A stretch of DNA of 64,000 nt from a virus (IMGVR_UViG_3300046170_000449:14034-78033); one strand, 5' to 3'. Positions 48,932 to 63,459 are shown, counted from the stretch's first letter. The notes: generated from the letters alone by a model not told the origin. Made by a program: numbers and translations.

Positions 48932-48963
48932 GCAAGGGACTTACACCGAATGGATGCCCTTGC
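48932..48963 (-). ncRNA. Motif A copy 1
   Basis: GCAAGG-GCATCCATTCGGTGTAAGTC-CCTTGC, 1 nt after the polA stop. Confidence 0.75.
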
Positions 48964-48964
48964 C

Positions 48965-50833
48965 TTAGTGCGTATCATACCAGCTGTGGCCTGTCTTTAC
49001 GTCGCCTTCGATCTTACATAAGAAGTCAAAACCTTCTCCGGCCATTACGTAAGAATTTAATATGTATGGAATTAAGTCTTGCTCTATCCCTGGGCGACAA
49101 GACATTTGAATTTCATCATGGATAAAAGCATGCTGTACCCAATCCTTATCATAAACATAGCCCGCATCATTTAATTCTTCATGGATATTAATAACTACTT
49201 GTTTCATTATTACTGCACCTGCAGCTTGTAACAAAACATTTAATGCTTTAAATTCAGAACGGCAATAAAGCGGTCTCTTATCAAGGCCAATGAGAAAACC
49301 TCGTGAGCCAAGAGTCGCTGCAAGTTGGCGTTTAAGTTCTTGTAATGCTGGTATTCCTTCAAGGAATGAATTGATTGCTGTTCTTCCAAAACTTCTAAGT
49401 TTGTCTGGATCTTTTTCATTTGGATTAACAATGCCACCCGCTTTAAGAAAGCCAGCACCATAAAGAACAGCATAAAGAAGACGCTTACTGATGTCTCTTG
49501 TACCCACTCCAAACATCTTTTGGTTATAGGTATGGATGTCTTGCGTGTCATCGATAACAACATTTCCATACTCACCATCATCCCATAAAGCTAAATAACC
49601 TGCCAAACACCTTAACTCCAATGCTTTTGCATCCGAACCAATTAAGATCCAATCATTGGGAGCATGAAATAATTCTCTACATTCTTTACCATAAGGTGAA
49701 TAAACAGCAGGTACTTGAGCCATGTTGGGATTACGATGACTAGCTCTGCCTGTGATACAACCATTAGTAATTAAATCTCCATGCATAACACTGTCTTCGT
49801 CTACTAGTTTCAACCAAGCATTGTTACCTTCTTTCATTTGGCCCAGGCGTTTCTTTAACAACATGTACCTGGACAAAGGCTTAGCTTCAGGGTATGAAAG
49901 TTGAGCAAGGACTTCATCATTCAAGATTGCATTACCTTTATCTGTTACGTCTTTAGGTATCCATTTATACTTACTTCTTAAACGATCAGTAATCTGTTGC
50001 CTTGACCCTGGATTAAATTCTTCACTATGTACCTTACGGAAAGGTACACCTTTTACATAACCACGTTTGGTATTGTTTACCTTGGGAGTAAACCAAGTTT
50101 CTGTTTCAATGGGTGGGAATAATGTCTTTAGTTTTTCTTCGAGTTTTGCTTTCTCAGACTCAAGGTCATCCACAACAGCAAGACATTTATCAATATCAAA
50201 AGGAAAGCCTGTTCTAATTTGTCTTTGAATGCAATGAGCAAGCGAGTGCTCCAGCTGGTAAGCCCCGTGGTCAATGTTCTGCATTTGAATGTGATTAAAT
50301 AACTTGGTTGTGACTGAAACATCTTGCTTGCAGTAGTCAAGCATTTCTTGTGAGTAAGTAGAAAACTCTTTGAAATTGATCTTCTTGTCACTGAGACGGT
50401 AGCCCCAGGCTTTAAGACCAGCTGATCCTCTGAGATTCGGCGGCACCGAACTGTACTGCTCCGTATCAAGATCGTACAGTTTTTCCTTGGGCCAGATGAG
50501 CCGGGTGCAAAGTAACGTGTCAATGATTTGAGGGAAAGGTTTCTTGGTAAAAGTTTCCGGCCATAGTTTTTCTATGACCGGAATGTCGTAGTTGATAATA
50601 TTGTGGCCGATTAAAAGATCAGCTTCAGCCAAACAATGCAAAGCAGCATCAATAACACGAGGCCCAAACTCATAAGTGCGGTTTCCGATGAGATCGTAAA
50701 AGACAATGCAGTGTATTTTAGTAGCTTCGTCATACAGGCCATCAGTTTCAATATCAAATACGTAGGCTTTTTTAATGGAGGAATTTAGCTTCGGGCTGAA
50801 CTTCAAGATGTTTGGCGGCAAGCTTTCTATCAT
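48965..50833 (-). CDS. polA: DNA polymerase family A (T7-like) with 3'-5' exonuclease
   Basis: FDIETDG, GHNIINYD, TGRASHRNPNMAQVP, DAKALELR, KRLLYAVLYGAG, FIHDEIQ. Confidence 0.95.
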   Translation of the reverse strand: MIESLPPNILKFSPKLNSSIKKAYVFDIETDGLYDEATKIHCIVFYDLIGNRTYEFGPRVIDAALHCLAEADLLIGHNIINYDIPVIEKLWPETFTKKPFPQIIDTLLCTRLIWPKEKLYDLDTEQYSSVPPNLRGSAGLKAWGYRLSDKKINFKEFSTYSQEMLDYCKQDVSVTTKLFNHIQMQNIDHGAYQLEHSLAHCIQRQIRTGFPFDIDKCLAVVDDLESEKAKLEEKLKTLFPPIETETWFTPKVNNTKRGYVKGVPFRKVHSEEFNPGSRQQITDRLRSKYKWIPKDVTDKGNAILNDEVLAQLSYPEAKPLSRYMLLKKRLGQMKEGNNAWLKLVDEDSVMHGDLITNGCITGRASHRNPNMAQVPAVYSPYGKECRELFHAPNDWILIGSDAKALELRCLAGYLALWDDGEYGNVVIDDTQDIHTYNQKMFGVGTRDISKRLLYAVLYGAGFLKAGGIVNPNEKDPDKLRSFGRTAINSFLEGIPALQELKRQLAATLGSRGFLIGLDKRPLYCRSEFKALNVLLQAAGAVIMKQVVINIHEELNDAGYVYDKDWVQHAFIHDEIQMSCRPGIEQDLIPYILNSYVMAGEGFDFLCKIEGDVKTGHSWYDTH

Positions 50834-51187
50834 TCTTATTAATCCAATTCAATATATTGTAAGCGCCTGTTTGATGTGGTGCACAAAAAGCTTTAGCGAT
50901 TTGTGAATCAGTTTTGATTGGAATCAATTCAAACTTCTTTTTTTCTAGGTTAGTAGAAATGGCATGAGGCACGCCTTTAATTTCAGTGGTGATTAAGTAA
51001 GACATCGAAGCTGTAGTAGTCATTGAATAGTAGCAAAGGGGTTGTTGATTTTCAGTTAGTATTTTGTTTGACTAACTTCTGTTTGTAGTAAAGGTTTGCT
51101 TGTCGCCTGGCGCAACGTTTGCAGTTGCCCAGGCTGTTGTTACTACGGGGAGCGTAGCGATCCGTGCTCCCACATTTGTTACAAGGC

Positions 51188-51970
51188 TTAACCTTTTTTG
51201 CTGGAGTTGTATCCAACAAAGCCTCCTTCTTTCTTACGTTGCTGGATAGCTTTACCAGCATCAGATCCTTTTGGTTGTATGCCATGAACTAAAAGTGCAA
51301 ATGGTTTATCACCAAAACAATGGCTATCGTCATGGTCCACTGATAGACCCAGACTGCTAGCTTCCATCTCTGAGTAGACGACATAAGAGATGCGCTTGAA
51401 CTGATGTGCATGCGACTTAAGCATAGGGTCTAAGTTGCCACCCATCGATGCTGTGAGATAAAAGTTTTCTGGAATCTTATCGATGCTATTAAGCCACAGT
51501 TGTAACTGTTTTGTGTATCCATAGTATTTACGTGTTGGATCCATACGAGCAACACGTAGCCATGCAAGGAAGTAAAGCTCTGACCAGTAGTCACCTGACT
51601 CATGGATGCGAACCAAATCGATCTTGTGTTTGGGATCCTTTGCATTGATTGATGCAGTGATCAGCTTCTGTACAGCAGCGATCTTATGGATAGGATCTTC
51701 AACAGGGATCATGGTTTCTTTTAGTAAGTCCCAGTTGTACCAACGTGCTGCACGACAGTCAGGACTCCGTGCTTCACTGCTAGCTGCAAAGCAACGGTAT
51801 GCTGCAGCGTCAGTGTTGTTGGTCTGTGGTAAGTCTTGGATCTTACCTGTGACTCGATCTGAGAATGTCTTACATACACCAGCATTAGGGCAGGTATACC
51901 CAGCTGGTAGTGAAAAGATGAGTCGCTTGCCTAACTTGGCATTGCCGGTTGAAAACTTAAGTAGTGCCAT
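51188..51970 (-). CDS. GP88-family phage protein
   Basis: GNAKL...FSLPAGYTCP.A..C; VRIHESGDY; YGYTK; N..LTAS.G. Confidence 0.75.
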   Translation of the reverse strand: MALLKFSTGNAKLGKRLIFSLPAGYTCPNAGVCKTFSDRVTGKIQDLPQTNNTDAAAYRCFAASSEARSPDCRAARWYNWDLLKETMIPVEDPIHKIAAVQKLITASINAKDPKHKIDLVRIHESGDYWSELYFLAWLRVARMDPTRKYYGYTKQLQLWLNSIDKIPENFYLTASMGGNLDPMLKSHAHQFKRISYVVYSEMEASSLGLSVDHDDSHCFGDKPFALLVHGIQPKGSDAGKAIQQRKKEGGFVGYNSSKKG

Positions 51971-51992
51971 GATGTGTGGTGTGATGTGATTG

Positions 51993-52030
51993 ACCAGGAC
52001 TTACACAACACGTTAGTGTTAATGCCTGGT
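51993..52030 (-). ncRNA. Motif A copy 2
   Basis: ACCAGGCATTAACACTAACGTGTTGTGTAAGTCCTGGT. Confidence 0.75.
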
Positions 52031-52031
52031 A

Positions 52032-52037
52032 TATAAT
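52032..52037 (+). promoter_or_regulatory. -10 box (TATAAT) for the riboswitch/DUF4278 transcript
   Basis: Perfect TATAAT 7 nt upstream of the riboswitch 5' end. Confidence 0.6.
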
Positions 52038-52044
52038 GGTAGAA

Positions 52045-52095
52045 CGTTCACCAGCTTTTGGCTGGCGCATAACAACAGGCTTGGAACGGGGCTTG
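52045..52095 (+). ncRNA. Glutamine-II (Downstream-peptide) riboswitch
   Basis: CGTTCA-CCAGC.TTTG.GCTGG-CGCA...GGAACGGG with CGTTC/GAACG pairing, upstream of a DUF4278 gene. Confidence 0.8.
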
Positions 52096-52113
52096 TTTTA
52101 TCGGAGAACTCCA

Positions 52114-52260
52114 ATGACCCTTACTTATCGTGGTGTAGCTTACGACTCCCAGTCTGCTTTGCTTACTCATTTGTTAGACAAGTTTAAGAAAGAACAACGT
52201 CTTGAGAAAGAGCTTAAGAAAGACAGAGAAAGGATCGCCGCTAGCTCATCAGTCGAATAA
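52114..52260 (+). CDS. DUF4278 small protein
   Basis: MTLTYRGVAY signature; GGAG SD. Confidence 0.85.
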   Translation: MTLTYRGVAYDSQSALLTHLLDKFKKEQRLEKELKKDRERIAASSSVE

Positions 52261-52482
52261 GATAAGCAAGTACTTTATTCTCTCTTGTCCTCCCAGATCT
52301 AGTAGCTGGGTTATCAACTATTGCAGGCGCGAGAGCCGAATAGATTACTACTAACAATGAAGCCAGGTGTGAGAGCCTGGTTTTTTAATGTTATGTTTTA
52401 GTAGTAGACCAATCGTCTACGTTTCATGTAATTTTATACATGAAACTTTACTCGTTAGTGGAAGATAGCTAGATCAGGTAGG

Positions 52483-52624
52483 CGCGAGAGCCACTGAATT
52501 TTCCATTAAACCCAAGGCTATGGCTTACGCGAATTCTCGATAAACGCATGTTATCAGGATTCTCGATGATTGACTTTTATCGGAAATCCGCGAAAGCCAC
52601 TGAATTTTCCATTAAACCCAAGGC
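52483..52624. repeat. 36-bp direct repeat pair (52483-52518 and 52589-52624, one mismatch)
   Basis: CGCGA(G/A)AGCCACTGAATTTTCCATTAAACCCAAGGC. Confidence 0.9.
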
Positions 52625-52771
52625 CAACTCAATTCAATATCGTTTTCCCAATCACTCGAACAGATTGGGTGATTCAATACGTATTGATTGAAGAGTTCTT
52701 TTAGCTCAGTTAAGGAGAGGTCAACCTCCTTAGCTTTGACTGCGACATTAGTTTGTCCGCGATAGATTTCA

Positions 52772-53278
52772 TCAAGCGCACTTTGAATACAGGTTGCAGT
52801 CGTGGGATTCATTAGTCATGTACTCAGGGATAAAGAAGCCACAAGCTTCATTTTCATTATGTTCGCATGATGTGCATGCGTTGCTGCTAATTGTTTCTTT
52901 TATTCCTGTATCAACTTTATTCTTTACATCTTCAATAGGCATTTCAATTGTTGTCATGCGATAGCCGCACTCTAAACAACTCTTTCTACGTCTTCTATAT
53001 CCTTTGGCTGTAATTTTAGTTTCGATAACAGCTAAAGATCTTTCTTTACATTTAGGACAAGCTTCTCTGAAACTTTCACGAGCAGCTTTAATCCTACTAG
53101 GTTCAGTCTTTACTTTGAATGGTTTCCTATGTTCTCTACCTGCACACTTGGTAGAGCAAAATGTTTTAGTACGACCGCGCTTTAGGTTGGCGCGGTGTTG
53201 ACAAGCTTGACGATTAAATTCTTTTCCGCATTTAGTACAAGAAAGAATGATTGTGCCACGTGATTGCTTTAGCTCCAT
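52772..53278 (-). CDS. Zn-ribbon protein (NrdR N-terminal-like)
   Basis: CPKC....VIETK.....RRRRKSCLECGYRMTTIE. Confidence 0.7.
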   Translation of the reverse strand: MELKQSRGTIILSCTKCGKEFNRQACQHRANLKRGRTKTFCSTKCAGREHRKPFKVKTEPSRIKAARESFREACPKCKERSLAVIETKITAKGYRRRRKSCLECGYRMTTIEMPIEDVKNKVDTGIKETISSNACTSCEHNENEACGFFIPEYMTNESHDCNLYSKCA

Positions 53279-53916
53279 AGTGCAGATGAGATGATTGGGA
53301 ATTGTTCAGTAAAGATTTGCTTGCAGTGTTCTGCAATTTCTTTGTGTTCTTGTTGCGTACCATTGGCACTACGCAGATCTATGTAATGTGCCCATGATCT
53401 GAGTGTACCGTTCATATACAAACGAGTTGGTACAGCGGAAGGTAATAAAAAACGAGCTGATTCTTTTGCCACACCTTTGCTAATCAACTCTTGATAGAGG
53501 TGTTCAGCTTCTTCAAAGTGAATAGCAATGCGATGCTTGATGTCAGCTACCTGATTCTTGCCTAACTTAGAATCAAGATCATCAACAGAGTTCTGTCTGT
53601 TCTTTATGTCTTGAGAACGTAGTTGAGGACAGTGGATGCGACCAATTGAATTTGTATTTGCATAGCGTTGTGAGAATTCTTGAAAGGTAAATGACCGATG
53701 CCGTAAGATCTGGGGACTAATCCCACGTGTTGTATTGATTTCAACACAAAGGTTAGCCATTTCAAAAATACTCCAGTGCTTGTGCTTGATGCAGTATTTA
53801 AGTAGCCCAGTTACATCGGGGTTGTTTTGGTTGTCAGGGTTAGAGACACGAGCCATCATGCCTATCATTTGTTCTGCATTTGGTGTAGCCCAAATTAGTT
53901 TGACTTGATCTGTCAT
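53269..53916 (-). CDS. thyX: FAD-dependent thymidylate synthase
   Basis: HWSIFE, QILRHRSFTFQEFSQRY, KESARFLLP, RSWAHYIDLR. Confidence 0.97.
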   Translation of the reverse strand: MTDQVKLIWATPNAEQMIGMMARVSNPDNQNNPDVTGLLKYCIKHKHWSIFEMANLCVEINTTRGISPQILRHRSFTFQEFSQRYANTNSIGRIHCPQLRSQDIKNRQNSVDDLDSKLGKNQVADIKHRIAIHFEEAEHLYQELISKGVAKESARFLLPSAVPTRLYMNGTLRSWAHYIDLRSANGTQQEHKEIAEHCKQIFTEQFPIISSALWS

Positions 53917-53937
53917 TAGTTAAGAATAAATTAAAAT

Positions 53938-54014
53938 TGGTAGGAATGGTGGGACTCGAACCCACACTGTAGCGATTTTAAATCGCTTGCCTCTGCCAAT
54001 TGGGCTACACTCCT
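53938..54014 (-). tRNA. tRNA-Leu(UAA) with encoded CCA and short variable loop
   Basis: AGGAGTG acceptor, AGCGA-TTTAAAA-TCGCT anticodon arm, GTGGG-TTCGAGT-CCCAC T arm. Confidence 0.9.
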
Positions 54015-54016
54015 AT

Positions 54017-54074
54017 GCTAGGGCTTACACTTTCGGTGTCTCCTGGAGGCGGCGTTACCTACCGGATGCCTAGC
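54017..54074 (-). ncRNA. Motif A copy 3 (ends 2 nt before the tRNA 5' end)
   Basis: GCTAGGCATCC...GTGTAAGCCCTAGC. Confidence 0.75.
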
Positions 54075-54079
54075 TGTTA

Positions 54080-55852
54080 TCAAGATTGTAACTGAACTTC
54101 GCGGATATACAATGCTTTTTTAAGCTGATGTTCAACAATGGCACGATCAATGTCGTTGAGTCTGGCATTGCCAACGTCTGCTATCTGAGAGACGTGCATT
54201 ACACCGTTCTCAACTATTAGTTGTACAGTGTAACGAGGCTTGTTATCAATCATGACCAGTACAATCATGTGTCTGTACTTCTTAATACCGTCTGCATAGC
54301 TATGGGAGCCGACGCAGTTACGTACTGCGCGGCCCCAATGAGCGAGCATGTGTGTATCAAGTGGTTGCAAGAACGTATAGGTATTAACTACCTCAGGTTC
54401 TGCCAGTGTGATGTCACCTTTGAGTGGTACTTTGATTGGTTCAGGGAATAGTTTCTGGGGTAATGAAGTCAATGGATTGTCTAGCTTCCATGTCTCTGCC
54501 ATGAGGTGATCATGCCATTCAGTCATGCGCCAACGTCTTGGCTTAAGCTTAGCTGGATCTGTACCAGCTGCAATACATTGGGTAAGCATGGCGTATGTAT
54601 CGCTCCATTCGTACGTATTCATGTGTACGTTACCTGTTATGTTGTTAATTCTTTGACGTGACTTACATTCTTTAGATGCTTCTATTACTTTGTCATATTG
54701 TTTTCTTAACATATTCAAGAAAGATTCAACAGGTAAGTTGGCACGTAACCATTCGTATCCTGTCTCAGAATGATACCCATGCATCTCGATACGAGATAGG
54801 TAATCATATCTTGAACGTAAGTAGTTGATATCCATGTCACGCCATATGCACTTAATGTGGCATACAGACTCAATGAATATCTGTAGTTCGCTATAAGGTT
54901 GTATCAATAGGTCTAAGTTAAATTCTTGCTTAGCATTCTCTGTGTCATATATAGTTTGTAGCTTATCCATTGCAGTGACTACCATGCGACGGAACCATTT
55001 AGATTCCCATACGTCTGTTAGCCATGGGTTCTTATAGTGATTAGAGATCTTTTGCAATACATCATTGATGTCATGTACGTAAGAACTCTTTATAATGTTT
55101 AACCATTTAGGACGTGTGTGACTATGTGTTAAGAGCTTAGATAAGCCTGTGTCTTTATTAGCTACGCGTTCAAATACATTACGTGAGAAGCCACCTTTGT
55201 AAGTAGGTATCTTGCTTAGTAAGCATGCTTCCCATTTAGTAACAGCTTCCCATATAAAGATTCCATTACCCCGTGATGAAATGTGATGAGTATTGCGATC
55301 AATGCCTTTCCAGTAACTAGATGTATAACCATCTTGGATTGCTACATCGTTAACTAATAATGTATCTCTATACCAATATGACTTACCATCTTTAACGTGT
55401 TGCATTTCTCTTTGTTTGTATTGGTCATCATCTGCCTTAGATGATTGAAGCATGTTGGTGTAACATGCCTTACGTCCTGCTGCTGTGTCCTTATAGGTAT
55501 AGCTCAGTCCGTAGTAATAAGTATCTTCTTCTTTCTGTGGTAACCATGCGGCTACCCATAGTTGTTTGTAGTAGTAGATAACTGCTACTGGCTGAGGATC
55601 TTCACCGAACACTGGTCGTGTGATAAGGCGTACCTTACCTTCGCATGCTTTCGTATTGTTGATGTGTTCAACAGCTTCTTCCCATGTTCTATCGTTAACA
55701 ATGTGAGTTGGTATGAGGTTAGATGGTCTGCCATTGTACAACCAAGCACTTCTTGAGGAGCTGCGTCTGGGATTGGCTTTCTTAGCTTTTTTAAGGGTCT
55801 TGTCATAGGACAGGACTTGCTTTTGGAGTTGGGATGGCAAGTTAAAGTACAT
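54080..55852 (-). CDS. PcfJ-domain protein
   Basis: C-terminal EWHDHL ... LAHWGRAVRNCVGS..Y...Q.....N. Confidence 0.75.
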   Translation of the reverse strand: MYFNLPSQLQKQVLSYDKTLKKAKKANPRRSSSRSAWLYNGRPSNLIPTHIVNDRTWEEAVEHINNTKACEGKVRLITRPVFGEDPQPVAVIYYYKQLWVAAWLPQKEEDTYYYGLSYTYKDTAAGRKACYTNMLQSSKADDDQYKQREMQHVKDGKSYWYRDTLLVNDVAIQDGYTSSYWKGIDRNTHHISSRGNGIFIWEAVTKWEACLLSKIPTYKGGFSRNVFERVANKDTGLSKLLTHSHTRPKWLNIIKSSYVHDINDVLQKISNHYKNPWLTDVWESKWFRRMVVTAMDKLQTIYDTENAKQEFNLDLLIQPYSELQIFIESVCHIKCIWRDMDINYLRSRYDYLSRIEMHGYHSETGYEWLRANLPVESFLNMLRKQYDKVIEASKECKSRQRINNITGNVHMNTYEWSDTYAMLTQCIAAGTDPAKLKPRRWRMTEWHDHLMAETWKLDNPLTSLPQKLFPEPIKVPLKGDITLAEPEVVNTYTFLQPLDTHMLAHWGRAVRNCVGSHSYADGIKKYRHMIVLVMIDNKPRYTVQLIVENGVMHVSQIADVGNARLNDIDRAIVEHQLKKALYIREVQLQS

Positions 55853-55880
55853 GTGATTAGATGTGATGGAATGAAAAGAT

Positions 55881-55907
55881 CTGGGACTTACGCATAGTAC
55901 TGCCCAG
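55881..55907 (-). ncRNA. Motif A copy 4
   Basis: CTGGGCAGTACTATGCGTAAGTCCCAG. Confidence 0.75.
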
Positions 55908-55950
55908 GCTGGGATTTATTCGCATAACTAACGAAACCCAGGTGCTTATT

Positions 55951-56736
55951 CTAAAAGGGAATGTTATCTGTTGCAGGAAGATCAGGTAAACCTTCAGTAT
56001 TACTACCCCATGGTTCAGCAACTTGTGATTCTGTGTTAGAACCCCAAAGAGATTTAGGTGCTGACTCAGATGAGACAGTAACTTGAGGTTGGATCTCAGT
56101 TGTTTTTGGCTTAGGTGCCAAAGTCATTTGATTGATTTGAATCTCAGTATTAGATTTAAGTTCACCTGTGTTCTGGTCTTTCCATGCACTGGTAAAGATA
56201 CGGCCAGCAACAGTTAGTCCTGTTCCTTTCCGTGTCATGTTAGCTAGCCATTCTGCATAGCGTACCTTGGCATCTGCTTTAGTAATTGCTTTAAGGTTAA
56301 AAAGATCAGTTTCTTGTTTACCTCGGTTAACACTAAGTGATTGAGATGAGATGATGTAACCACTATCAGTTGTCTTGAACTGACGGGAATCACTCAGGTC
56401 TACATCTTTAATACAACGTCCACTAAGAATAATTTCATTTAGCAGGGGGAATTGTCCGGTAGCAACAATAACCCAGTTGCCATCATGAAGAGTATAGGAT
56501 CGTTCTTTAAGGTCATGTCGCAGCTGTGCTCCTGAGATGTAAAGCTGCATACCATTTTGTATAGCAGAAAGAAACTTGTCTTGGTTAGCCCAGACTTGAT
56601 AAGTAAGTTTCGTTGGTACATTACGTGTGTTTGCAGTTGGTATCTCAACATTGCATGTAACAATCGTGCGTGATTCACTGATGTAAATCTGCTGTGGATC
56701 TGCTGTCACGTTGACAGTCAAGTAAGCTTTGTTCAT
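55951..56736 (-). CDS. Single-stranded DNA-binding protein (tandem OB-fold-like)
   Basis: RKGTGLTVAGRI....WKDQNTGE; acidic tail ending DNIPF. Confidence 0.75.
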   Translation of the reverse strand: MNKAYLTVNVTADPQQIYISESRTIVTCNVEIPTANTRNVPTKLTYQVWANQDKFLSAIQNGMQLYISGAQLRHDLKERSYTLHDGNWVIVATGQFPLLNEIILSGRCIKDVDLSDSRQFKTTDSGYIISSQSLSVNRGKQETDLFNLKAITKADAKVRYAEWLANMTRKGTGLTVAGRIFTSAWKDQNTGELKSNTEIQINQMTLAPKPKTTEIQPQVTVSSESAPKSLWGSNTESQVAEPWGSNTEGLPDLPATDNIPF

Positions 56737-56763
56737 CGAAAAAGTAATTAATTAGTAGCTTGT

Positions 56764-56797
56764 ATAGGTCTTACACATCTGGCGGGATGATGCCTAT
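56764..56797 (-). ncRNA. Motif A copy 5
   Basis: ATAGGCATCATCCCGCCAGATGTGTAAGACCTAT. Confidence 0.75.
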
Positions 56798-57428
56798 TGA
56801 ATTGTTGTTTGTCGAGAGCATCAACTTAACAAGTGCTTGATGCTTGTCATGCCTCGGCTTTTCCTAGCTGCAGACTAGGTATTGTATGGCCTATCACTAG
56901 GTGCACCTAATGATGTAGGACTCTCGACAGTGTGGCTAGTCTTCGATCAGCTGCCAATCTAGATCTAAAGGTGTGAGAAAGTCAATCTGATCTTGCTCAG
57001 TACCTAAGACCGGAGGAGGCAGTTCACCATCTTCTAGCTGAAACATTGCCTCACAAATGCCCGGCCCATACTCAGCAGGGTATGCATCGCCTGGTGGATC
57101 GTGTTTCGCAGATAGTTCAACCCGTGCATCAGTAATGGTTGCAACAACGAGCCAAGTAGAAATCCCATGTTCATCAACAAAGTCAAGAGTGATTGATTCG
57201 ACAGTAAGCAGTTCATTTTGCATTGCAATTTACTTCTAAGATATGGATCGCTGCATCACGCAAGGCAAATGCTTTTGAATAAGCATTTTCCCACTCAGGG
57301 CTACAAGGCTTGAGTGAAGCTGCGTAGTCAGATGCTTCATCAGCCATACTACTAACTGTTAGGTAGGCTTCGTAGGCAGAACGTTGGAAAGAAGATGTGG
57401 TCATAGATGGAATGAGTTGGTGTAAATG

Positions 57429-57456
57429 TAGATAGTTTAGAGACTTGTCTAGGTCT
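57429..57456 (-). ncRNA. Motif B (H-type pseudoknot) copy 1
   Basis: AGAC-CTAGACAA-GTCT-CTAAACT-ATCTA. Confidence 0.6.
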
Positions 57457-57710
57457 ATGTAAGTATAGTTATATATTTATATAAGTGTGGTAGCGGCTGT
57501 CCCCTCGGGGGGTTCGGGGGGGTTAAGTCTAAGGTTATTTAATATTGTCTTAATGATTAGGTAGTCTATTTCACCTTGGGCCAGCTTAAATATCGCCTGG
57601 CTCTTTCGATTGTATTCCGTGAGACATTGTATTCATATGCAATGTGCTGCACATGGATGTGGTTTAAACTCCTCAATATTACAACTTGATCTTTAGTCAG
57701 CTTTGTATTC

Positions 57711-57986
57711 TTACTTGTCATCGGTCCACTCGTCTTGTTTGTACTCAGGTAAGTCAGGTGTTTTGAAATCATCTAACGATGGTATCTCAGTGTGTAGTAA
57801 GTTGCGAAATGATATACCAGTACCAGGAATTGCTAAGGATCCACGGGCGTTCTTACTATTTACATTCGCAGTAAAGGACAGTGGTCCTAACTTGAATGTT
57901 TTACTGTAGCTCTTGAGACCATGTTCGGAGATATTAAATCCGGCAATGGTGCGGTCGAAATTGATATGAGACTTCTTGTTAGTCAT
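57711..57986 (-). CDS. DUF4236-like protein
   Basis: KLGPLSFTAN....GSLAIPGTGISF. Confidence 0.6.
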   Translation of the reverse strand: MTNKKSHINFDRTIAGFNISEHGLKSYSKTFKLGPLSFTANVNSKNARGSLAIPGTGISFRNLLHTEIPSLDDFKTPDLPEYKQDEWTDDK

Positions 57987-59171
57987 TAGCCTGCGTCTCC
58001 AGTGATAAAACAAAGGTGTTCATAGATTGAATAATCAAGATTATCGAATACCCAAGAAAGGATTGCTTCTTTCTCAGGTGTTGTGACGAGATGTTCTAGC
58101 TCTTCAATTTTCCAGTCATCATTTAAACAAGGTTTAGTCATTAGATTCTCTTAATGATTGAGGGGTTAAAGAATTGGTGTCCTCTTCGTTCATGTTAGTC
58201 ATGACGAATTTAGTTCCATCGGGTGCCGTAAAGCCACCGACGAACCCTGCTCCGATACGATCAGCGGACTCCTTCATCTTTGCGACGAACGCCATAGCTT
58301 CTAGCATGTCGTTGTCTGGAAGATTGTCTGGGATACCTGGGTGCATGTCTGGTAATTGTCTGGGTTGTCTGGATGAAGCGATTAGATAGTCATAAACGCT
58401 TCATTGGTTTTCATATTCAATAGCAGTGACTGTGCCACCACCTTTTTTGATAGCAGCAAGTACTTCCTCTTTCATATGTTCAGACCAAACAATGTGTACT
58501 CTTTTGAAGTTTAGGAAACTGCAGTCGTAATAGATAGTGATCATTTACTGGTAGCAATTTTGGTAGCGAGTTGATCGATAGGACCGTTCCAAGCACGGCC
58601 ACTGTTGTCTTCCCTGAAAGACATCAGCCACTGCTCTTTAGATTCGGTGTCATTAGGTAAATCGGTTGCGTGCCAGTCGTTGTAAAAAGCCAAGGCGTTG
58701 ACGATGGCCTGTTGCTCGGCCTCGGTGACGATGAGATGGATGCTCATTAGTTATTCAGGAGTTCAGGATAAATTTCTTTGACAGTTTCAATAAGCTCATC
58801 ATTTGATTCTTTATCTAAATAATGATGCAGGGAATCAGCAGCATATTGGATAAGAGAATTCATATCCATGTCATTAATTACTGAATGGACATAGGAATCT
58901 TGAAGCTTGTCACGTTGGTCAGGTGTCATTGATCTTTAGTACGTTTGTAGTTGATTGTGTGAGTGAAGGGGCTGAGCTTTAACTTATTGAAGACATAGGT
59001 TAAGTGATGGAAGTAATCACGATCCTTACGTTCTCTTTTTGGCTTATGAATGATCCAATAGTCGATAGCATCTTGGATAAATTCAATGTGTTCATCGGTG
59101 AGAATGTGATCATCAGCCCTGGTTGTGTTCATGGTAGTTAGTGTTACTGACTGATAAGGTTTACTAATGTA

Positions 59172-59207
59172 TCCAGGACTTACCTCACATCTCAGTGAGT
59201 GCCTGGA
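59172..59207 (-). ncRNA. Motif A copy 6
   Basis: TCCAGGCACTCACTGAGATGTGAGGTAAGTCCTGGA. Confidence 0.75.
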
Positions 59208-59875
59208 GATTAAGCATGTTAGATCAAGCCGAGTAGCCGTGGCCAGGCATCTGGATGATCAGGTTCTAGCTCATTCTCTCCTACTGGATCGAGAGCGACT
59301 TCACCTAAGCATTCTTCTTCTACTTGTCCATTGGTTGGTACAGGATACCAGCCTTCGACTAAGTAGCTGTAAGACATTCCATTTTCATCTGGGCCATAGT
59401 TGGGATGCTCTTCACTAGGCTCCCAATAGATCATAAGTTCTCCTCGTTTGGTGCGATAAGTGCTACCACTTTTGGGGAGCTTGTCTTTCGTTGGGTCGTA
59501 GTTGACTTCCGCTTGGAATTGGTTGTCCCTCTCTTCTTCTGGGAAGGGGGTATAACCAAAGGCAACTGCGATGATTTCTGATGCTCTATCGAATGTGGAG
59601 TTAGGCATGATCCTATTTCAGTGATGATGATGGTGATGAGAGCAAGGACCACATCAATAATGTGATCCTCGTGTTGAGAGCCAGTAGTCATGCTGTTGGT
59701 GGTGGTGATGCAACAAAGCTATCACCTTCCTCCATGAGTTCTTGCATTACTTTCTCCTGCTCATCTGCAATATCATTGAGCATGAAGAAGTAATCTTGAC
59801 GCAGCTCCTCAAGAAGTGCTTGGTTGTACAGGTGTTGTTTGATTAAAGACATGATGTGATTTGGTTGAGTGTACA

Positions 59876-59903
59876 TGAGCAGTTTAACGTCATGCTCAGG
59901 ACG
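59876..59903 (-). ncRNA. Motif B copy 2
   Basis: CGTC-CTGAGCAT-GACG-TTAAAC-TGCTCA. Confidence 0.7.
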
Positions 59904-59911
59904 GTCAAGGG

Positions 59912-60364
59912 CTAGCTATGAATATGTTTCCATATCTTCTTATGTTTAATTAATGAAATATTTGATGTACAAATGTTATAAAGTTTAGCTAATTTATGTT
60001 GTGACAACGGTGAATTGTATATTTCCATGGCTTGTTTGTCTGTAAGTTTTGAATTGCCATTGTATTGCCCTTTAGCTTGACGCTTACGTTCTTGTCTATC
60101 TTTCATGTTATTTGCATGTGTACCCAAGATTAAATGACTTGGATTAGAGCAAAGCCTATTGTCACAAGTATGTCTTACCATAAGACCGTCAGGAATTTCA
60201 CCTTTGGTTAATGTATAAGCAACACGATGTGCCGGGGACAATTGATTGTTTAATCTAAATTGACCATAACCATCTAAATAAGTACAAGCAGTCCACTCCC
60301 AGCAGCATTCGCTGGGAGCTGGATTTACTTTAGACCAGAATCTGTGTGCAAATGTCATGGTCAC
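59912..60364 (-). CDS. HNH homing endonuclease
   Basis: RFWSKV, CWEWT, GYG, AHRVAY, VRHTCDNRLCSNPSHL..GT...NMKD. Confidence 0.92.
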   Translation of the reverse strand: MTMTFAHRFWSKVNPAPSECCWEWTACTYLDGYGQFRLNNQLSPAHRVAYTLTKGEIPDGLMVRHTCDNRLCSNPSHLILGTHANNMKDRQERKRQAKGQYNGNSKLTDKQAMEIYNSPLSQHKLAKLYNICTSNISLIKHKKIWKHIHS

Positions 60365-61153
60365 AATGAGTTCAAGTAGTCATCGTAACGGAGTGCACCG
60401 ATGCTCAGTGCATCTTTACACTCATCTTCAAATTCTTTCATATCTGTTGGGAGTGCATCCATATAACTAATGACATCCTGCTCTCTCCACTCGCCACCTT
60501 CATAGGTTTGATAGTGGAGTTGCTGGGATTCGCCACCGTAATAAACGATGCGCTCTTTGCGTCCAAGCTGAGTTGGACCATAGGTTTGATAGATAAACAT
60601 GAGTTGATTAATAGATGAGTTAGTTGATGGTTATTCAGCAGCCTGGCCCATAATAGGCCGAGGCTGATGTTGAACATACGTTAGTATCTTCTTGAGAATA
60701 CTTCTCAATACTATAGATACCTGCTGTTACCAGCATAATTACAGTGCAAATACTCATACCCCAATAGATAATTGGATGTACTTCAGGTGCCCTTCTGTAA
60801 CTATCTAGTTGGATGTAGTGTCTAGGCTTGGTGCGGAGTGTTTGCTTCATGAGTCTGATTCAGATTCTGTGTTTTTGAGTGTACGTAGGTACTTGATGAT
60901 ACCTTCGATTTCAGGCAATGTTAAATGATTGATAGGTTCAAGTGTGTCCGGGAACCATGCTTCGTAGGTTACCTCTTCACCTGGAAGAAGCCATCCATGA
61001 ATACCTAGATTTGGCGGTGCAGTAATGATGGTTACCTCACCGATCAAATCATCTTGGTACTTAGAGATGTACGCTTCTTTAATAGCGGGATGTTGTTCAA
61101 AATAGAACTTGTACTTTAGTTTCCAAGGCATAAGTATGTGAATAAGATTGACG

Positions 61154-61180
61154 CTAGGGCTTACACCAAAGGATGCCTAG
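61154..61180 (-). ncRNA. Motif A copy 7
   Basis: CTAGGCATCCTTTGGTGTAAGCCCTAG. Confidence 0.75.
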
Positions 61181-61575
61181 TGATGGTTCATACTAAAGTC
61201 GGGGATTCATAGATGAAACCTTTCTCGAATAGCTTCCATGCTTTATAGATAGCAGCACGGATCTCTTCTCGGTTGTTATAGATCACCACTACTCCTTCCC
61301 ATGCAAGCTGGGTGAGTAGGATGATGAGTGCAATTGTATGTACGACCAGCCATTTAAGTGGTCGATGTAGATGTTGTCGATAGAACTTACCGAAAGCATA
61401 GCCTGCTTTGTAGGTGTTCCTGATGCAGTTGCTAAGGAAGTTAATACATAGCAAGATGGCTGTGATGCTGAAGAGTTCACTGCCTAATGCATAGATACGC
61501 AATGCAGCAGTGATGAAGCTGTCAAGGTGTGACAGGATGTGAAAAGTAGTCATTGGTTTGATGTGTAATGTTTAG

Positions 61576-63459
61576 TGCCCCCTCGTGTAAAGAATGAGGA
61601 GGCGATACCTAGCCAAGGCATTGAACCCTGGCAGTCAGCCTGTACTGATTAGGTGTTAACGCCGTGCTCTATCGAGTGCCCAAAGGCAACAACCAAGAGC
61701 AAGCATTGTTGGTCCAGCGACAGCAGTGCCAACTCCCATGATTCCAAGTGTTGCGGCATTAGCAATTAATTGCTTGTCATCTTCTGTCAGTCCAGAAAAT
61801 GGACCGTTAATCTCAGGTTCAGAGATTACGTTACCTTTGTTGTCGAATTGATGAGTCATGCTGTTATGTAATAGATGCCACCGAAATGTGGCAATACCTG
61901 ACCGGGGCCTCGAAGGCCCCAGTTCAAGTTTAGTGATCAGTTAGCTGTGCAGTCAACAGTTGGTCCGTTACCACCCATGGTTTGCCTTCCATGCTTTGTA
62001 TCGCTGCTGTTGCTCAGCTTGGCTCTTATCATAGATAGAAGCTTTCTCTGCAGGACATGTGTGGACACGTCCTTTGGGTGAGACGTAGACATAGCTGCCG
62101 TCTTCTTGACGCTCGCCGCGATGAATCGCAAGCTCCTCGTCGTTGTATTCGTAACCGACCTTGACTCTGTGAGTTTTAGCAAGGCCGTCTTCGTTGGTCC
62201 ACTCTGCTGCTAATTGATACAAGCCATTGGATAAAACAACAGCTTGGACAACGGGCATGAGTGTACGGAGTGTTTGCAACATGATGTTGTGTGATTGATG
62301 CCACGGGATTGTGGCAATAACTGGACCAGGGTTTGCACCTGGTCACCCGCGTTGACGGATCAGTTGGTTGGATAACCGTAGCTCTGGCAGAACTCCATGT
62401 GTACAGCATAAGACTCAACAGGCCAGTCATTGTTAAGACACTGCTTACGTGTTGCACCTTCTAATACTTTAGGTAGTACAACCGCAGTACTAATCGTACC
62501 GAGGGCTAGTACAAGTGTACCGATAAACATGATAGGTGCAGAAGCAAATGCTTTTGAGATAAACATGATGTGATGTAATAGATGCCACGGGATTGTGGCA
62601 ATAGTTGGACCGGGGCTTGCACTCGGCCTCCCGCTTTGACGGATCAACTCCTAACCAATTCTTCACGAATGAAGTACTGATCACCTGCTAACAGATATGG
62701 TTTGTGGTAGTCAATGAACTCATTAGCCGCATTACGGCTCATGAAAACACCACTAACCACGAAGTTCTGCCAAGTTTCACGGCTTTCTAAAAAATAAACT
62801 TCAGAAAGCATGACGAGGTAGACCTTGATTTCTGATGCTCTATCGGCCACAGAAATCTCCTGTTGTGCGGTACCCATCTCCGCTGTGGGTAATAGTTGAG
62901 TGGGAGATTCGATCTCCCAGCATCACACCTGGTCAGATGACCATCTCAACTGGAGACTCCATCATTTCCGTAAAAGAAAAGACAGATATCTCTGCGAGCT
63001 CCTCTACAGGATTACCGAAGTTGTAATTGTGCTCGACCGAAAGATCGAACGCAACTGAGTCGGCCTCCTCTTTGCAGAAGTGTGCGCTGTGTTGTTGACC
63101 GTTGAGGATGACGAAGAACACGTCAGTCGCTCCGAGTGTGCGGTACCCATCTCCGCTGTGGGTAATGCCTGGGAGGGGAATCGAACCCCTCCTACACCAT
63201 CAGGCGAGTTCTTCACGACAGCGTTGATCAGCTGTGCGCTCTTGTAATTGAGCAACAGCAATAACCAAAGCTTTGTCAAGAGTAACAGGATGTCCTGCAT
63301 CTTTAGCAACTTCTTTAAAGCTGGCTGCAGTCTCAACAATGTACTTGAGACATTCTTCGAGGTTGTCAGGATACATGATGTGATGTAATAGATGCCACGG
63401 GATTGTGGCAATAGTTGGACCGGGGGTTGCACCCGGCCTCCCGCTTTGACGGATCAACT
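61576..63459 (-). repeat. Motif C: seven tRNA-T-arm-like intergenic repeats (61576-61654, 61857-61925, 62280-62365, 62564-62649, 62871-62920, 63144-63205, 63374-63459)
   Basis: 62564-62649 and 63374-63459 differ at 2 positions; 62864-62893 equals 63137-63166; the others share the fold with compensatory changes. Confidence 0.85.

Follow-up and report, generated by a model that had tools for sequence, protein, structure and literature searches.

The window analysed is a stretch of 64,000 nt from the 78-kb genome of an S-EIV1-like cyanophage. It carries a long block of same-strand genes that includes those for DNA polymerase A, DUF5895, GP88-family and PcfJ-like proteins, ThyX and SSB, together with a tRNA-Leu. 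A preliminary description of the sequence had placed seven hairpins between these genes, and exactly seven copies of the element, here called motif A, are present at those places, all on the minus (mRNA) strand and at gene boundaries. The features are as follows.

48932..48963, minus strand: copy 1, outer stem GCAAGGG/CCCUUGC, 41.6 bits, MFE -11.5 kcal/mol; the DNA polymerase A gene stops 1 nt upstream, and the DUF5895 ATG is about 25 nt downstream.
51993..52030, minus strand: copy 2, outer stem ACCAGG/CCUGGU, 25.8 bits; 22 nt upstream of the GP88-family gene ATG (51970), with no minus-strand ORF of at least 60 aa ending within ~580 nt upstream.
53938..54014, minus strand: tRNA-Leu (anticodon UAA), RF00005, 59.3 bits; directly 3' of copy 3, with the thyX ATG 21 nt downstream.
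54017..54074, minus strand: copy 3, outer stem GCUAGG/CCUAGC, branched 42-nt apical insert, 24.7 bits; lies between a PcfJ-like gene, whose stop is 5 nt upstream, and the tRNA-Leu, 2 nt downstream.
55881..55907, minus strand: copy 4, outer stem CUGGG/CCCAG, 32.2 bits; a PcfJ-like gene ATG (55852) lies 28 nt downstream.
55909..55941, minus strand: degenerate tandem look-alike adjoining copy 4 upstream, read from the sequence, without a model score.
56764..56797, minus strand: copy 5, outer stem AUAGG/CCUAU, 25.5 bits; the SSB gene ATG (56736) lies 27 nt downstream.
59172..59207, minus strand: copy 6, outer stem UCCAGG/CCUGGA, 24.2 bits; ORF 59219-59608 stops 11 nt upstream, and ORF 58926-59132 has its ATG 39 nt downstream.
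61154..61180, minus strand: copy 7, outer stem CUAGG/CCUAG, 41.3 bits, MFE -5.0; ORF 61188-61553 stops 7 nt upstream, and ORF 60847-61131 has its ATG 22 nt downstream.

Five of the seven copies start 1-11 nt past a stop codon, and, apart from copy 3 with its tRNA, every copy precedes a gene whose ATG lies 22-39 nt past the end of the hairpin. The positions first described, often just after a stop, some 20-40 nt before the next start and in one case 2 nt before the 5' end of a tRNA, were thus borne out.

Each copy is composed of an outer stem, an asymmetric internal loop and an apical hairpin. The outer stem varies in sequence, keeps its pairing in every copy and ends in GG/CC; the seven stems listed initially were all correct. 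The internal loop, originally given as GGCA / GUAAG, is invariant as stated, with CA on the 5' side and GUAAGN on the 3' side. Since the inner helix begins right after CA and stops right before GUAAG, the loop is refined to 2 x 6 nt, CA / GUAAGN. The closing position of the inner helix is mostly U.U, G-C or C-G, and the apical hairpin is unconstrained. The outer stem spans 5-9 bp and the inner one 3-9 bp, the spacing from GGCA to GUAAG ranges from 10 to 42 nt, and the shortest copies measure 27 nt. The pattern GGCA..GTAAGNCC matched 6 times in the window against 0.52 expected, a count reached in 0 of 100 shuffles, and the copy outside this count is the one that carries the 42-nt apical insert. 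A covariance model trained on 49 copies recovered the same seven (24.2-41.6 bits, E 1.6e-9 to 1.6e-4), the best non-motif match in the window scoring 10.1 bits (E = 2). No stemmed copies were found in the remaining 14 kb of the genome. Predicted folding of the copies is weak, with energies of -5 to -18 kcal/mol and z of -0.1 to -3; for copy 5 the MFE structure (-5.5 kcal/mol) is another fold and the centroid (-3.7) is the motif fold.

In keeping with the initial failure to assign the element to a named family, Rfam 15 gave no match to motif A at E up to 10 in the window and five other carrier loci, and literature searches yielded no description of it. The Rfam search near motif A loci returned only tRNA and a glutamine-II riboswitch. 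Several known classes were compared with the copies. The CA / GUAAGN strands offer no GA on both strands in the register that a kink-turn needs for the tandem sheared G.A / A.G pairs next to its 3-nt bulge. An intrinsic terminator would be a GC-rich hairpin with a U tract right behind it; the terminator scan called no motif copy, and U-rich tails follow copies 1 and 4 only. The variable GGCA-GUAAG spacing is at odds with the 16-18 bp between the -35 and -10 hexamers of a sigma-70-type promoter; the promoter scan gave 24 promoter-like sites, fewer than the 39 in shuffles, and of the motif copies only copy 5 is overlapped by one, a weak 9-of-12 match at 56815-56787. The identity of the stop codon varies (TAA here, TGA in GC-rich phages), which makes a recoding signal unlikely. 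The S8 site of 16S helix 21, the 23S H71 loop, the tetraloop receptor, the UAA/GAN motif, the C-loop, the sarcin-ricin motif, SECIS, CRISPR-repeat decoys and N4-type hairpin promoters were also considered and not adopted, some of them for a misfit of strand register or of a defining feature.

Motif A is widespread and phage-specific. The survey yielded 242 distinct copies in 151 viral contigs, with 5-9 copies per genome. Matches in prokaryote genomes (596 Gb) occurred at chance level and without stems, and none was found in 7 plus 151 sampled cyanobacterial genomes searched with speed filters on. Cyanophage lineages unrelated to that of the window also use motif A, including before late genes, as in S-CBWM1-like phages where it precedes the major capsid gene. 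Among cultured phages, B23 and S-CBWM1 have no copy and S-EIVl has two variant copies only; S-CBWM1-like contigs carry motif A at sites where S-CBWM1 has none, and a megablast of the motif region against cultured phages gave no match. The primase/helicase of one carrier contig, L145, is closest to pelagiphage and roseophage proteins, and the hosts of carriers may therefore not all be cyanobacteria. Relatives at 88-99% identity were present in two marine metatranscriptome runs as contigs, a form that preserves neither the ends of the RNA nor its strand or level. Contigs there span copies 1 and 5, which speaks neither for nor against processing, and the small share of words matched in a run says nothing about habitat.

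The results support motif A as a selected, strand-specific structure at the RNA level. Among sequences gathered with a pattern that left out the outer stem, at least 3 of 5 flanking pairs were Watson-Crick in 84 of 99 unique viral matches, compared with 14 of 107 matches from prokaryote genomes. Similarly, in 90 segments gathered with a pattern that left out the inner segment, at least 2 abutting pairs were found in 82, versus ~22 when shuffled. Both stems covary, with a covariation score of 0.40 versus 0.12 for shuffled alignments (equalled in 0 of 500 shuffles). Those interior pairs that are not Watson-Crick comprise five G.U and two U.U, with no A.C among them. The long ORFs flanking motif A are on the same strand in 172 cases and on the opposite strand in 16. 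That part of the preliminary interpretation which placed an RNA element at gene boundaries of a long same-strand block is thus upheld by covariation, by G.U pairs in the absence of A.C and by strand.

Motif A is also anchored to the downstream gene or tRNA. In S-EIV1-like phages the start codon of the next gene, which has no Shine-Dalgarno sequence, follows 22-33 nt downstream, or a tRNA follows after 1-8 nt. At least 10 copies have a tRNA gene at this short distance. Among GP88 orthologues the distance from motif to ATG is steady at 22-30 nt over upstream gaps of 3 to 581 nt. An ATG occurs 20-34 nt downstream in 74 of 146 copies, and 108 of the 146 start 0-14 nt after a stop codon, notably in GC-rich phages. 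The downstream leaders are unstructured and contain only 10-17% G; U makes up 41-51% of positions +2 to +4 after the hairpin and then returns to background (259 copies). Motif A also stands before long non-coding arrays, and among the families next to tRNAs there is one where a small ORF seems to end within the hairpin.

A second element, a coremin-like pseudoknot, occupies the same distance before four orthologous genes in related phages. Upstream of the SSB, GP88, PcfJ-like and DUF5895 orthologues, motif A was found in 24 cases, the pseudoknot in 38 and neither in 10, and whole intergenic modules are swapped among the relatives. That either element can precede the same four genes points to a module which sits at a gene's 5' boundary whatever the gene; judged from this comparison, exchangeability shows an apparent shared role and not which role that is. 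Their commonest forms share CUGGGCAU and UAA..CCCAG, as read from the sequence. In plant viruses, coremin consists of two tiny hairpins with a conserved A-rich spacer and blocks the 5'-3' exonuclease Xrn1; its criteria are a 5' hairpin of ~3 bp, a YGAD or YGNNAD loop, a 10-nt spacer with essential adenosines and a second hairpin (PMC6546385, PMC10520033). Motif A resembles this element (coremin/xrRNA-C, known from beny-, cucumo- and other RNA viruses) in being a tiny, thermodynamically weak structure with an essential A-rich single strand, and differs in being a single composite, unknotted hairpin with a 2 x 6 loop and a free apical loop; it has neither the two hairpins with a 10-nt spacer nor the H-type pseudoknot, and neither the YGAD loop nor the UUAAAC spacer. 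A neighbouring motif with ..GACGUUAAAC.. fits the coremin criteria better than motif A.

The expression of phage operons depends on the post-transcriptional fate of the RNA, of which, to our knowledge, almost nothing is known outside T7 and T4. Motif A is very small, very conserved and very common, with hundreds of aquatic phage contigs carrying it, occurs in several unrelated cyanophage lineages, is uncatalogued and precedes replication genes, capsid genes and tRNAs. The explanation preferred here, with somewhat less than even confidence, is that it serves as a putative shield against 5'-end-dependent decay. Within long polycistronic phage transcripts, motif A would act in cis as an RNA module that marks the 5' edge of the next unit, be it a pre-tRNA or a message lacking a Shine-Dalgarno sequence. 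The invariant loop could give the small hairpin a compact tertiary fold or hold a tightly bound partner, and this fold or partner would halt decay that arrives from upstream, whether it proceeds 5'-to-3' or depends on the 5' end (RNase J, 5'-sensing RNase E). The downstream cistron or tRNA precursor would thereby be stabilised and insulated, and the leader freed from pairing with upstream RNA. Since the secondary structure is weak, the function would have to be carried by the invariant loop, as in coremin. RNase J is a plausible enzyme for this reading; all 3 cyanobacterial genomes tested encode it, as does the Synechococcus elongatus control, and the E. coli control does not. The occurrence in unrelated lineages and before late genes fits a general RNA-stability device. 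The tie to the downstream gene or tRNA, combined with the exchange with the pseudoknot, favours a shield or insulator at the 5' boundary over the mere divider of a transcript proposed in the preliminary description. Counting against a shield is the near-invariance of GG-CA / GUAAG-N-CC, since a sequence-specific protein site would look alike. We know of no 27-nt hairpin that has been shown to stop a bacterial exonuclease.

It is possible, if doubtful, that motif A represents a new, minimal (~27 nt) exoribonuclease-resistant or decay-blocking RNA class in phages of RNase J hosts. With the same reserve, it may do in bacterial viruses what the xrRNAs do in RNA viruses of eukaryotes, and may relate to the coremin-like pseudoknot as an unknotted structural isomer. 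If motif A blocks decay or insulates, it would explain how cyanophage messages survive in hosts that have RNase J as well as RNase E, carry the xrRNA concept over to bacterial viruses and supply a 27-nt insulator or stabiliser part for cyanobacterial synthetic biology. Given the many stop-adjacent copies, motif A could conceivably also serve the 3' end of the upstream message. REP elements and other 3' stabiliser hairpins are likewise imperfect palindromes right after stops inside operons, but REPs are chromosomal in enterobacteria, near-identical and RAYT-mobilised, whereas motif A copies differ and covary, are confined to phages and are placed relative to the downstream gene.

Somewhat unlikely, but the strongest of the rivals, is a site whose sequence is recognised by a host or phage factor acting in trans, either an RNA-binding protein or an endoribonuclease, and hence a candidate cut site dividing the polycistronic transcript. 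Cleavage by RNase III at the T7 early sites and by cyanobacterial RNase E beside short hairpins provides the models. The T7 signals (R0.3, R0.5, R1, R1.1, R1.3) are repeated intercistronic hairpins in stop-to-start gaps of one long phage transcript and have a conserved core; they too have an asymmetric internal loop with the longer strand 3', as seen when R0.3, R0.5, R1.1 and R1.3 were folded. However, such sites are defined by about two helical turns of duplex, in upper and lower stems of ~10 bp around an internal loop cut by RNase III in its 3' strand; the T7 sites have a conserved ..AAGG..CCUU-UAUGAU.. and were clearly longer when folded. Motif A is as short as 27 nt, has inner stems of down to 3 bp and was found mainly in cyanophage-type contigs, and its helices, even added together (5-9 bp plus 3-9 bp), make a short substrate for RNase III. 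Invariant loop residues and GG/CC pairs with a free apical part are typical of protein sites, and adjacency to tRNAs suits processing. The RNase E of cyanobacteria reportedly binds a short hairpin and cuts in the AU-rich stretch just 3' of it (PMC10989929), behaviour that suits this reading, as does the U enrichment past the hairpin. Against it, no RNA-binding protein or nuclease was found among the flanking genes and small early ORFs with Pfam and PHROGs, nor a phage ribosomal protein S21, no window ORF or other phage protein is common to the unrelated carrier lineages, and the searched host genomes hold no copies and thus no known host substrate to mimic. Moreover, a single sequence-specific enzyme would have to accept a pseudoknot of very different fold, unless it reads the shared CUGGGCAU / UAA / CCCAG. 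Were a host factor to bind instead, motif A would point to a new host-phage interface.

It is improbable that motif A is a translation element, namely a platform at -22 to -33 for standby or loading of 30S/S1, or a structural insulator there. The fixed distance to the ATG and the G-poor, pyrimidine-rich leaders without a Shine-Dalgarno sequence are as such an element would have them, but motif A also stands 1-8 nt before tRNA genes and before untranslated non-coding arrays, and the downstream capsid gene of S-CBWM1-like phages has its own GGAG.

Still less probable is a signal in nascent RNA for transcription, whether a pause, an attenuator or terminator, or a nut- or put-like antitermination site. 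Lambda and P22 nut boxB and HK022 put are small phage hairpins in the nascent transcript, the GUAA segment could be GNRA-like as in boxB, several sites lie along one long operon, and the tails of copies 1 and 4 and the weak U enrichment past the stem add to the resemblance. Yet boxB is read through its apical loop and occurs ~2 times per genome with boxA, whereas motif A has a free apical loop, an internal conserved part, 5-9 copies per genome and no conserved boxA-like partner; seven sites in 12 kb are unlike nut or put, a U tract is missing in most copies, and across phages the motif precedes early, middle and late genes.

The least probable reading is a DNA-level element, such as a PeSL-like joint for cassette recombination, a miniature mobile palindrome or a signal for ssDNA replication: the consensus CUGGGCAUCC..GGUGUAAGUCCCAG is almost identical across unrelated phages, intergenic modules are swapped whole, and S-CBWM1-like contigs have motif A where S-CBWM1 is without it, but pairing is strand-specific with G.U present and A.C absent, orientation follows the flanking genes, no transposase or RAYT-like partner was found, and copies within a genome have differing, compensated stems and are thus not recent copies. 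The PeSLs of T4-type phages are likewise repeated stem-loops at joints between small early genes where the gene content of relatives differs, but these are terminator-like hairpins paired with a sigma-70 early promoter, whereas promoter-like hexamers are missing from motif A, which can lie 1-8 nt from the tRNA behind it.

The look-alike that adjoins copy 4 has the same stem, CUGGG/CCCAG, and an inner hairpin, with loop strands UU / AUAAAU in place of the CA / GUAAGU of copy 4.

The copies of motif A share a layout of outer stem, GG, CA, inner hairpin, GUAAG, one variable nucleotide, CC and outer stem, and lie in the 78,033-bp IMG/VR phage genome (terminal repeats of 241 bp) of which the window represents bases 14034-78033. 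The pattern GGCA(N4-34)GTAAGNCC was matched six times in the window, always on the minus strand, versus 0.52 matches expected; six matches were reached in 0 of 100 shuffles. The copy that brings the count to seven has a 42-nt apical insert and falls outside the pattern. A covariance model (R1) built from 49 copies of motif A found exactly the seven copies claimed in the preliminary description, with scores of 24-42 bits versus 10 bits for the best non-motif match in the window, and the outer stems listed there proved exact when the copies were read with their flanks. No further stemmed copy was found in the remainder of the genome. The location of these and neighbouring features is as follows.

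~64 kb down to 47 kb, minus strand: gene block starting with small early ORFs, followed in order by HNH endonuclease, SSB, PcfJ-like protein, tRNA-Leu(UAA), ThyX, NrdR-like zinc ribbon protein, GP88-family protein, DNA polymerase A and DUF5895 protein
48932-48963, minus strand: motif A, copy 1
51993-52030, minus strand: motif A, copy 2, ahead of the GP88-family gene
61154-61180, minus strand: motif A, copy 7
59877-59911, minus strand: coremin-like module, ahead of another early gene
57405-57565 and 61554-61655, minus strand: gaps with coremin-like modules, also ahead of early genes
52042-52097, plus strand: glutamine-II riboswitch aptamer (RF01704, 41.3 bits versus a gathering score of 33)

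The RF01704 aptamer directly adjoins copy 2 inside a gap of ~640 nt without a minus-strand ORF, on the strand opposite to the neighbouring genes, and the region resembles the small cassettes that are usual in cyanobacteria and cyanophages, here placed on the plus strand.

Two structure tests were designed against circularity, the scan pattern omitting the stem being tested. The outer stem was tested with the core and commonest inner stem only, GGCATCC N3-6 GGTGTAAGNCC, a pattern present at no fewer than 119 loci in viral contigs and at 111 loci, approximately the chance level, in 596 Gb of prokaryote genomes. At least three of five Watson-Crick pairs flanked GG/CC in 84 of the 99 unique viral matches listed versus 14 of 107 genome matches, and a companion count of flanking pairing gave 91/129 among the viral matches listed versus 5/111 in genomes. 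The inner stem was tested with the scan anchored on one outer stem only (CTGGGCA N8-38 GTAAGTCCCAG), which yielded 90 distinct inner segments; two or more pairs abutted CA and GUAAG in 82 of them versus ~22 after shuffling, and three or more in 53 versus ~7. The covariation score over 119 distinct model matches was 0.40 versus 0.12 for shuffled data, with none of 500 shuffles as high, and collapsed once pairing partners were slid. The closing position of the inner helix was U.U in 48 of the 90 copies and G-C, C-G, A-U, U-A or G.U in the rest. The core is nearly constant: 3 of 119 copies have G or C instead of the final A of GGCA, and one copy, from Synechococcus phage S-EIVl, has A instead of the first G of GUAAG. 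Since the non-Watson-Crick pairs inside the stems include G.U and U.U but no A.C, and since long flanking ORFs share the orientation of motif A (172 on the same strand, 16 on the opposite strand), motif A is an RNA-level structure on the sense strand. Folding predicts modest stabilities, from -5 to -18 kcal/mol with z between -0.1 and -3, so function must be carried by the invariant loop rather than by helix strength.

The position of motif A relative to genes was counted over 146 copies. The hairpin starts within 14 nt after a same-strand stop codon, or overlaps it by up to 5 nt, in 108 of them, and 74 have an ATG opening an ORF at 20-34 nt downstream. The leaders that follow contain 10-17% G and no Shine-Dalgarno sequence, and are slightly enriched in U at positions +2 to +4. 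In at least ten copies, covering three different tRNA contexts, 1-8 nt separate the end of the hairpin from a tRNA gene. Copies preceding GP88 orthologues are a steady 22-30 nt from the ATG, with anything from 3 to 581 nt between them and the preceding ORF; in the S-EIV1-like group motif A is anchored to the downstream unit. At one viral locus (L097, 7790-8037) and in homologous tRNA-adjacent copies, a small ORF of ~54 aa or more appears to run into motif A, with an apparent stop at a UGA in the apical loop directly ahead of the tRNA.

Upstream regions of four orthologous genes (SSB, GP88, PcfJ-like and DUF5895) were compared in all fetched relatives. The junctions contained motif A in 24 cases, a compact coremin-like element in 38 and neither in 10. 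The compact element is composed of stem, loop, stem, UUAAAC and a tail pairing to the loop; the modules in the window read ..GUCC..GAC GUUAAAC U.. or ..CUAAAC.. and correspond to Motif B of the preliminary description. Both elements are equally far from the ATG (for motif A, 22-33 nt measured at the helix end), and the same gene has motif A in one phage and the compact element in a relative, which makes gene-specific regulation by motif A unlikely. The two are best seen as alternative, exchangeable ways of meeting a single generic need where a cistron begins, at its 5' edge. The compact element resembles the coremin of plant RNA viruses, in which two tiny hairpins and a conserved A-rich spacer halt both scanning ribosomes and Xrn1, a 5'-3' exonuclease (PMC6546385, PMC10520033). 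Since the commonest forms of both phage elements contain CUGGGCAU and UAA..CCCAG, as read from the sequences, motif A may represent an unknotted isomer of this pseudoknotted element.

The best reading, adopted tentatively, is that motif A serves as a shield or insulator at a 5' boundary. A small fold locked by its own loop or by a bound factor would stop decay entering from upstream, by the exonuclease RNase J or by 5'-sensing RNase E, and would keep the leader, devoid of a Shine-Dalgarno sequence, unpaired; in tRNA-adjacent copies motif A would later be removed by RNase P. All three cyanobacterial genomes tested encode RNase J, as does the S. elongatus control, and the E. coli control does not. 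The analysis shows how motif A folds, where and in which orientation it lies, that it is exchangeable and that it is specific to phages; its tertiary structure, the enzyme that it would block and its influence on stability are inferred. The main rival, a specific nuclease or protein site, is less likely; such a site would resemble the T7 RNase III sites folded for comparison and to the hairpin-guided RNase E cleavage reported in cyanobacteria (PMC10989929). A lesser possibility is a translation standby element, which is contradicted by the presence of motif A in tRNA and non-coding contexts, and another is a transcription signal, against which stands the lack of U tracts. Lastly, a DNA-level joint is inconsistent with the covariation, with the G.U pairs and with an orientation that follows the genes.

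Motif A is real and common, is under strong constraint, and has no description in Rfam or the literature searched: the Rfam search bore out the earlier failure to match a family, and no description was found in the literature. Repeated intercistronic RNA structures of phage operons are already known as a kind of element; the form of motif A and its alternation with the coremin-like knot are new. It is specific to phages, with zero copies in 151 sampled cyanobacterial genomes versus 242 distinct copies in total, carried by 151 of the 203 viral loci fetched. The PcfJ-like protein shares 32% identity with its counterpart in S-EIVl, a polar freshwater cyanophage whose small early genes have two variant copies between them (KJ410740, 40727-40786 and 41437-41477). 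Close and distant relatives (loci L008-L011, contigs G002 and G003) carry 4-7 copies each, the six of G003 spanning 11 kb on one strand. Lineages unrelated to S-EIVl-type phages also carry motif A, including a 245-kb contig with two copies and a locus (L145) whose T7-type primase/helicase is closest to pelagiphage and roseophage proteins. Relatives of the region are present in two marine metatranscriptome runs, in which some contigs bridge copies 1 and 5, these being assembled contigs that do not show RNA ends.

Other structured elements were observed in the spacers. The earliest (61554-63003, minus strand) contain T-arm-like hairpins, e.g. GGGAGAUCGAAUCUCCC, within a covarying outer stem, after which come another hairpin, UUGCCAC..GUGGCA, and a leader poor in G; thus, nearly every early-arm gap holds some structured module and then a leader without a Shine-Dalgarno sequence. 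The HNH endonuclease gene (within 59912-60364, minus strand) appears to be a mobile insertion, since a relative in a metatranscriptome contig skips 59908-60482, with 124 other letters in place.

In at least 17 loci whose major capsid protein shares 64% identity with the one from Synechococcus myovirus S-CBWM1, the capsid gene is preceded by one copy of motif A at a distance of 45-50 nt. In these loci (L092, L114, L124, L138, L162 and ~12 more) the region between a small structural gene and the capsid gene contains in series motif A, a second mini-hairpin that also covaries, a UUUGAAGAC box that is conserved, and a GGAG..CUCC pairing by which the ribosome binding site of the capsid gene could be masked. 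Motif A was not found in S-CBWM1 itself, in which the second mini-hairpin and UUUGAAGAC box are present. In GC-rich contigs one copy follows a phrog_4652 gene or other small genes and precedes long arrays of non-coding repeats. Downstream of the single copy in four of them (L099, L131, L139, L200), more than 400 nt of non-coding sequence alternates G-rich GGCNNGG-type repeats with a conserved strong hairpin, ..GCAGCACGGAGG..CCUCCCUGCUGC.., and sister groups (L102, L109, L160) contain C-rich equivalents of these arrays.
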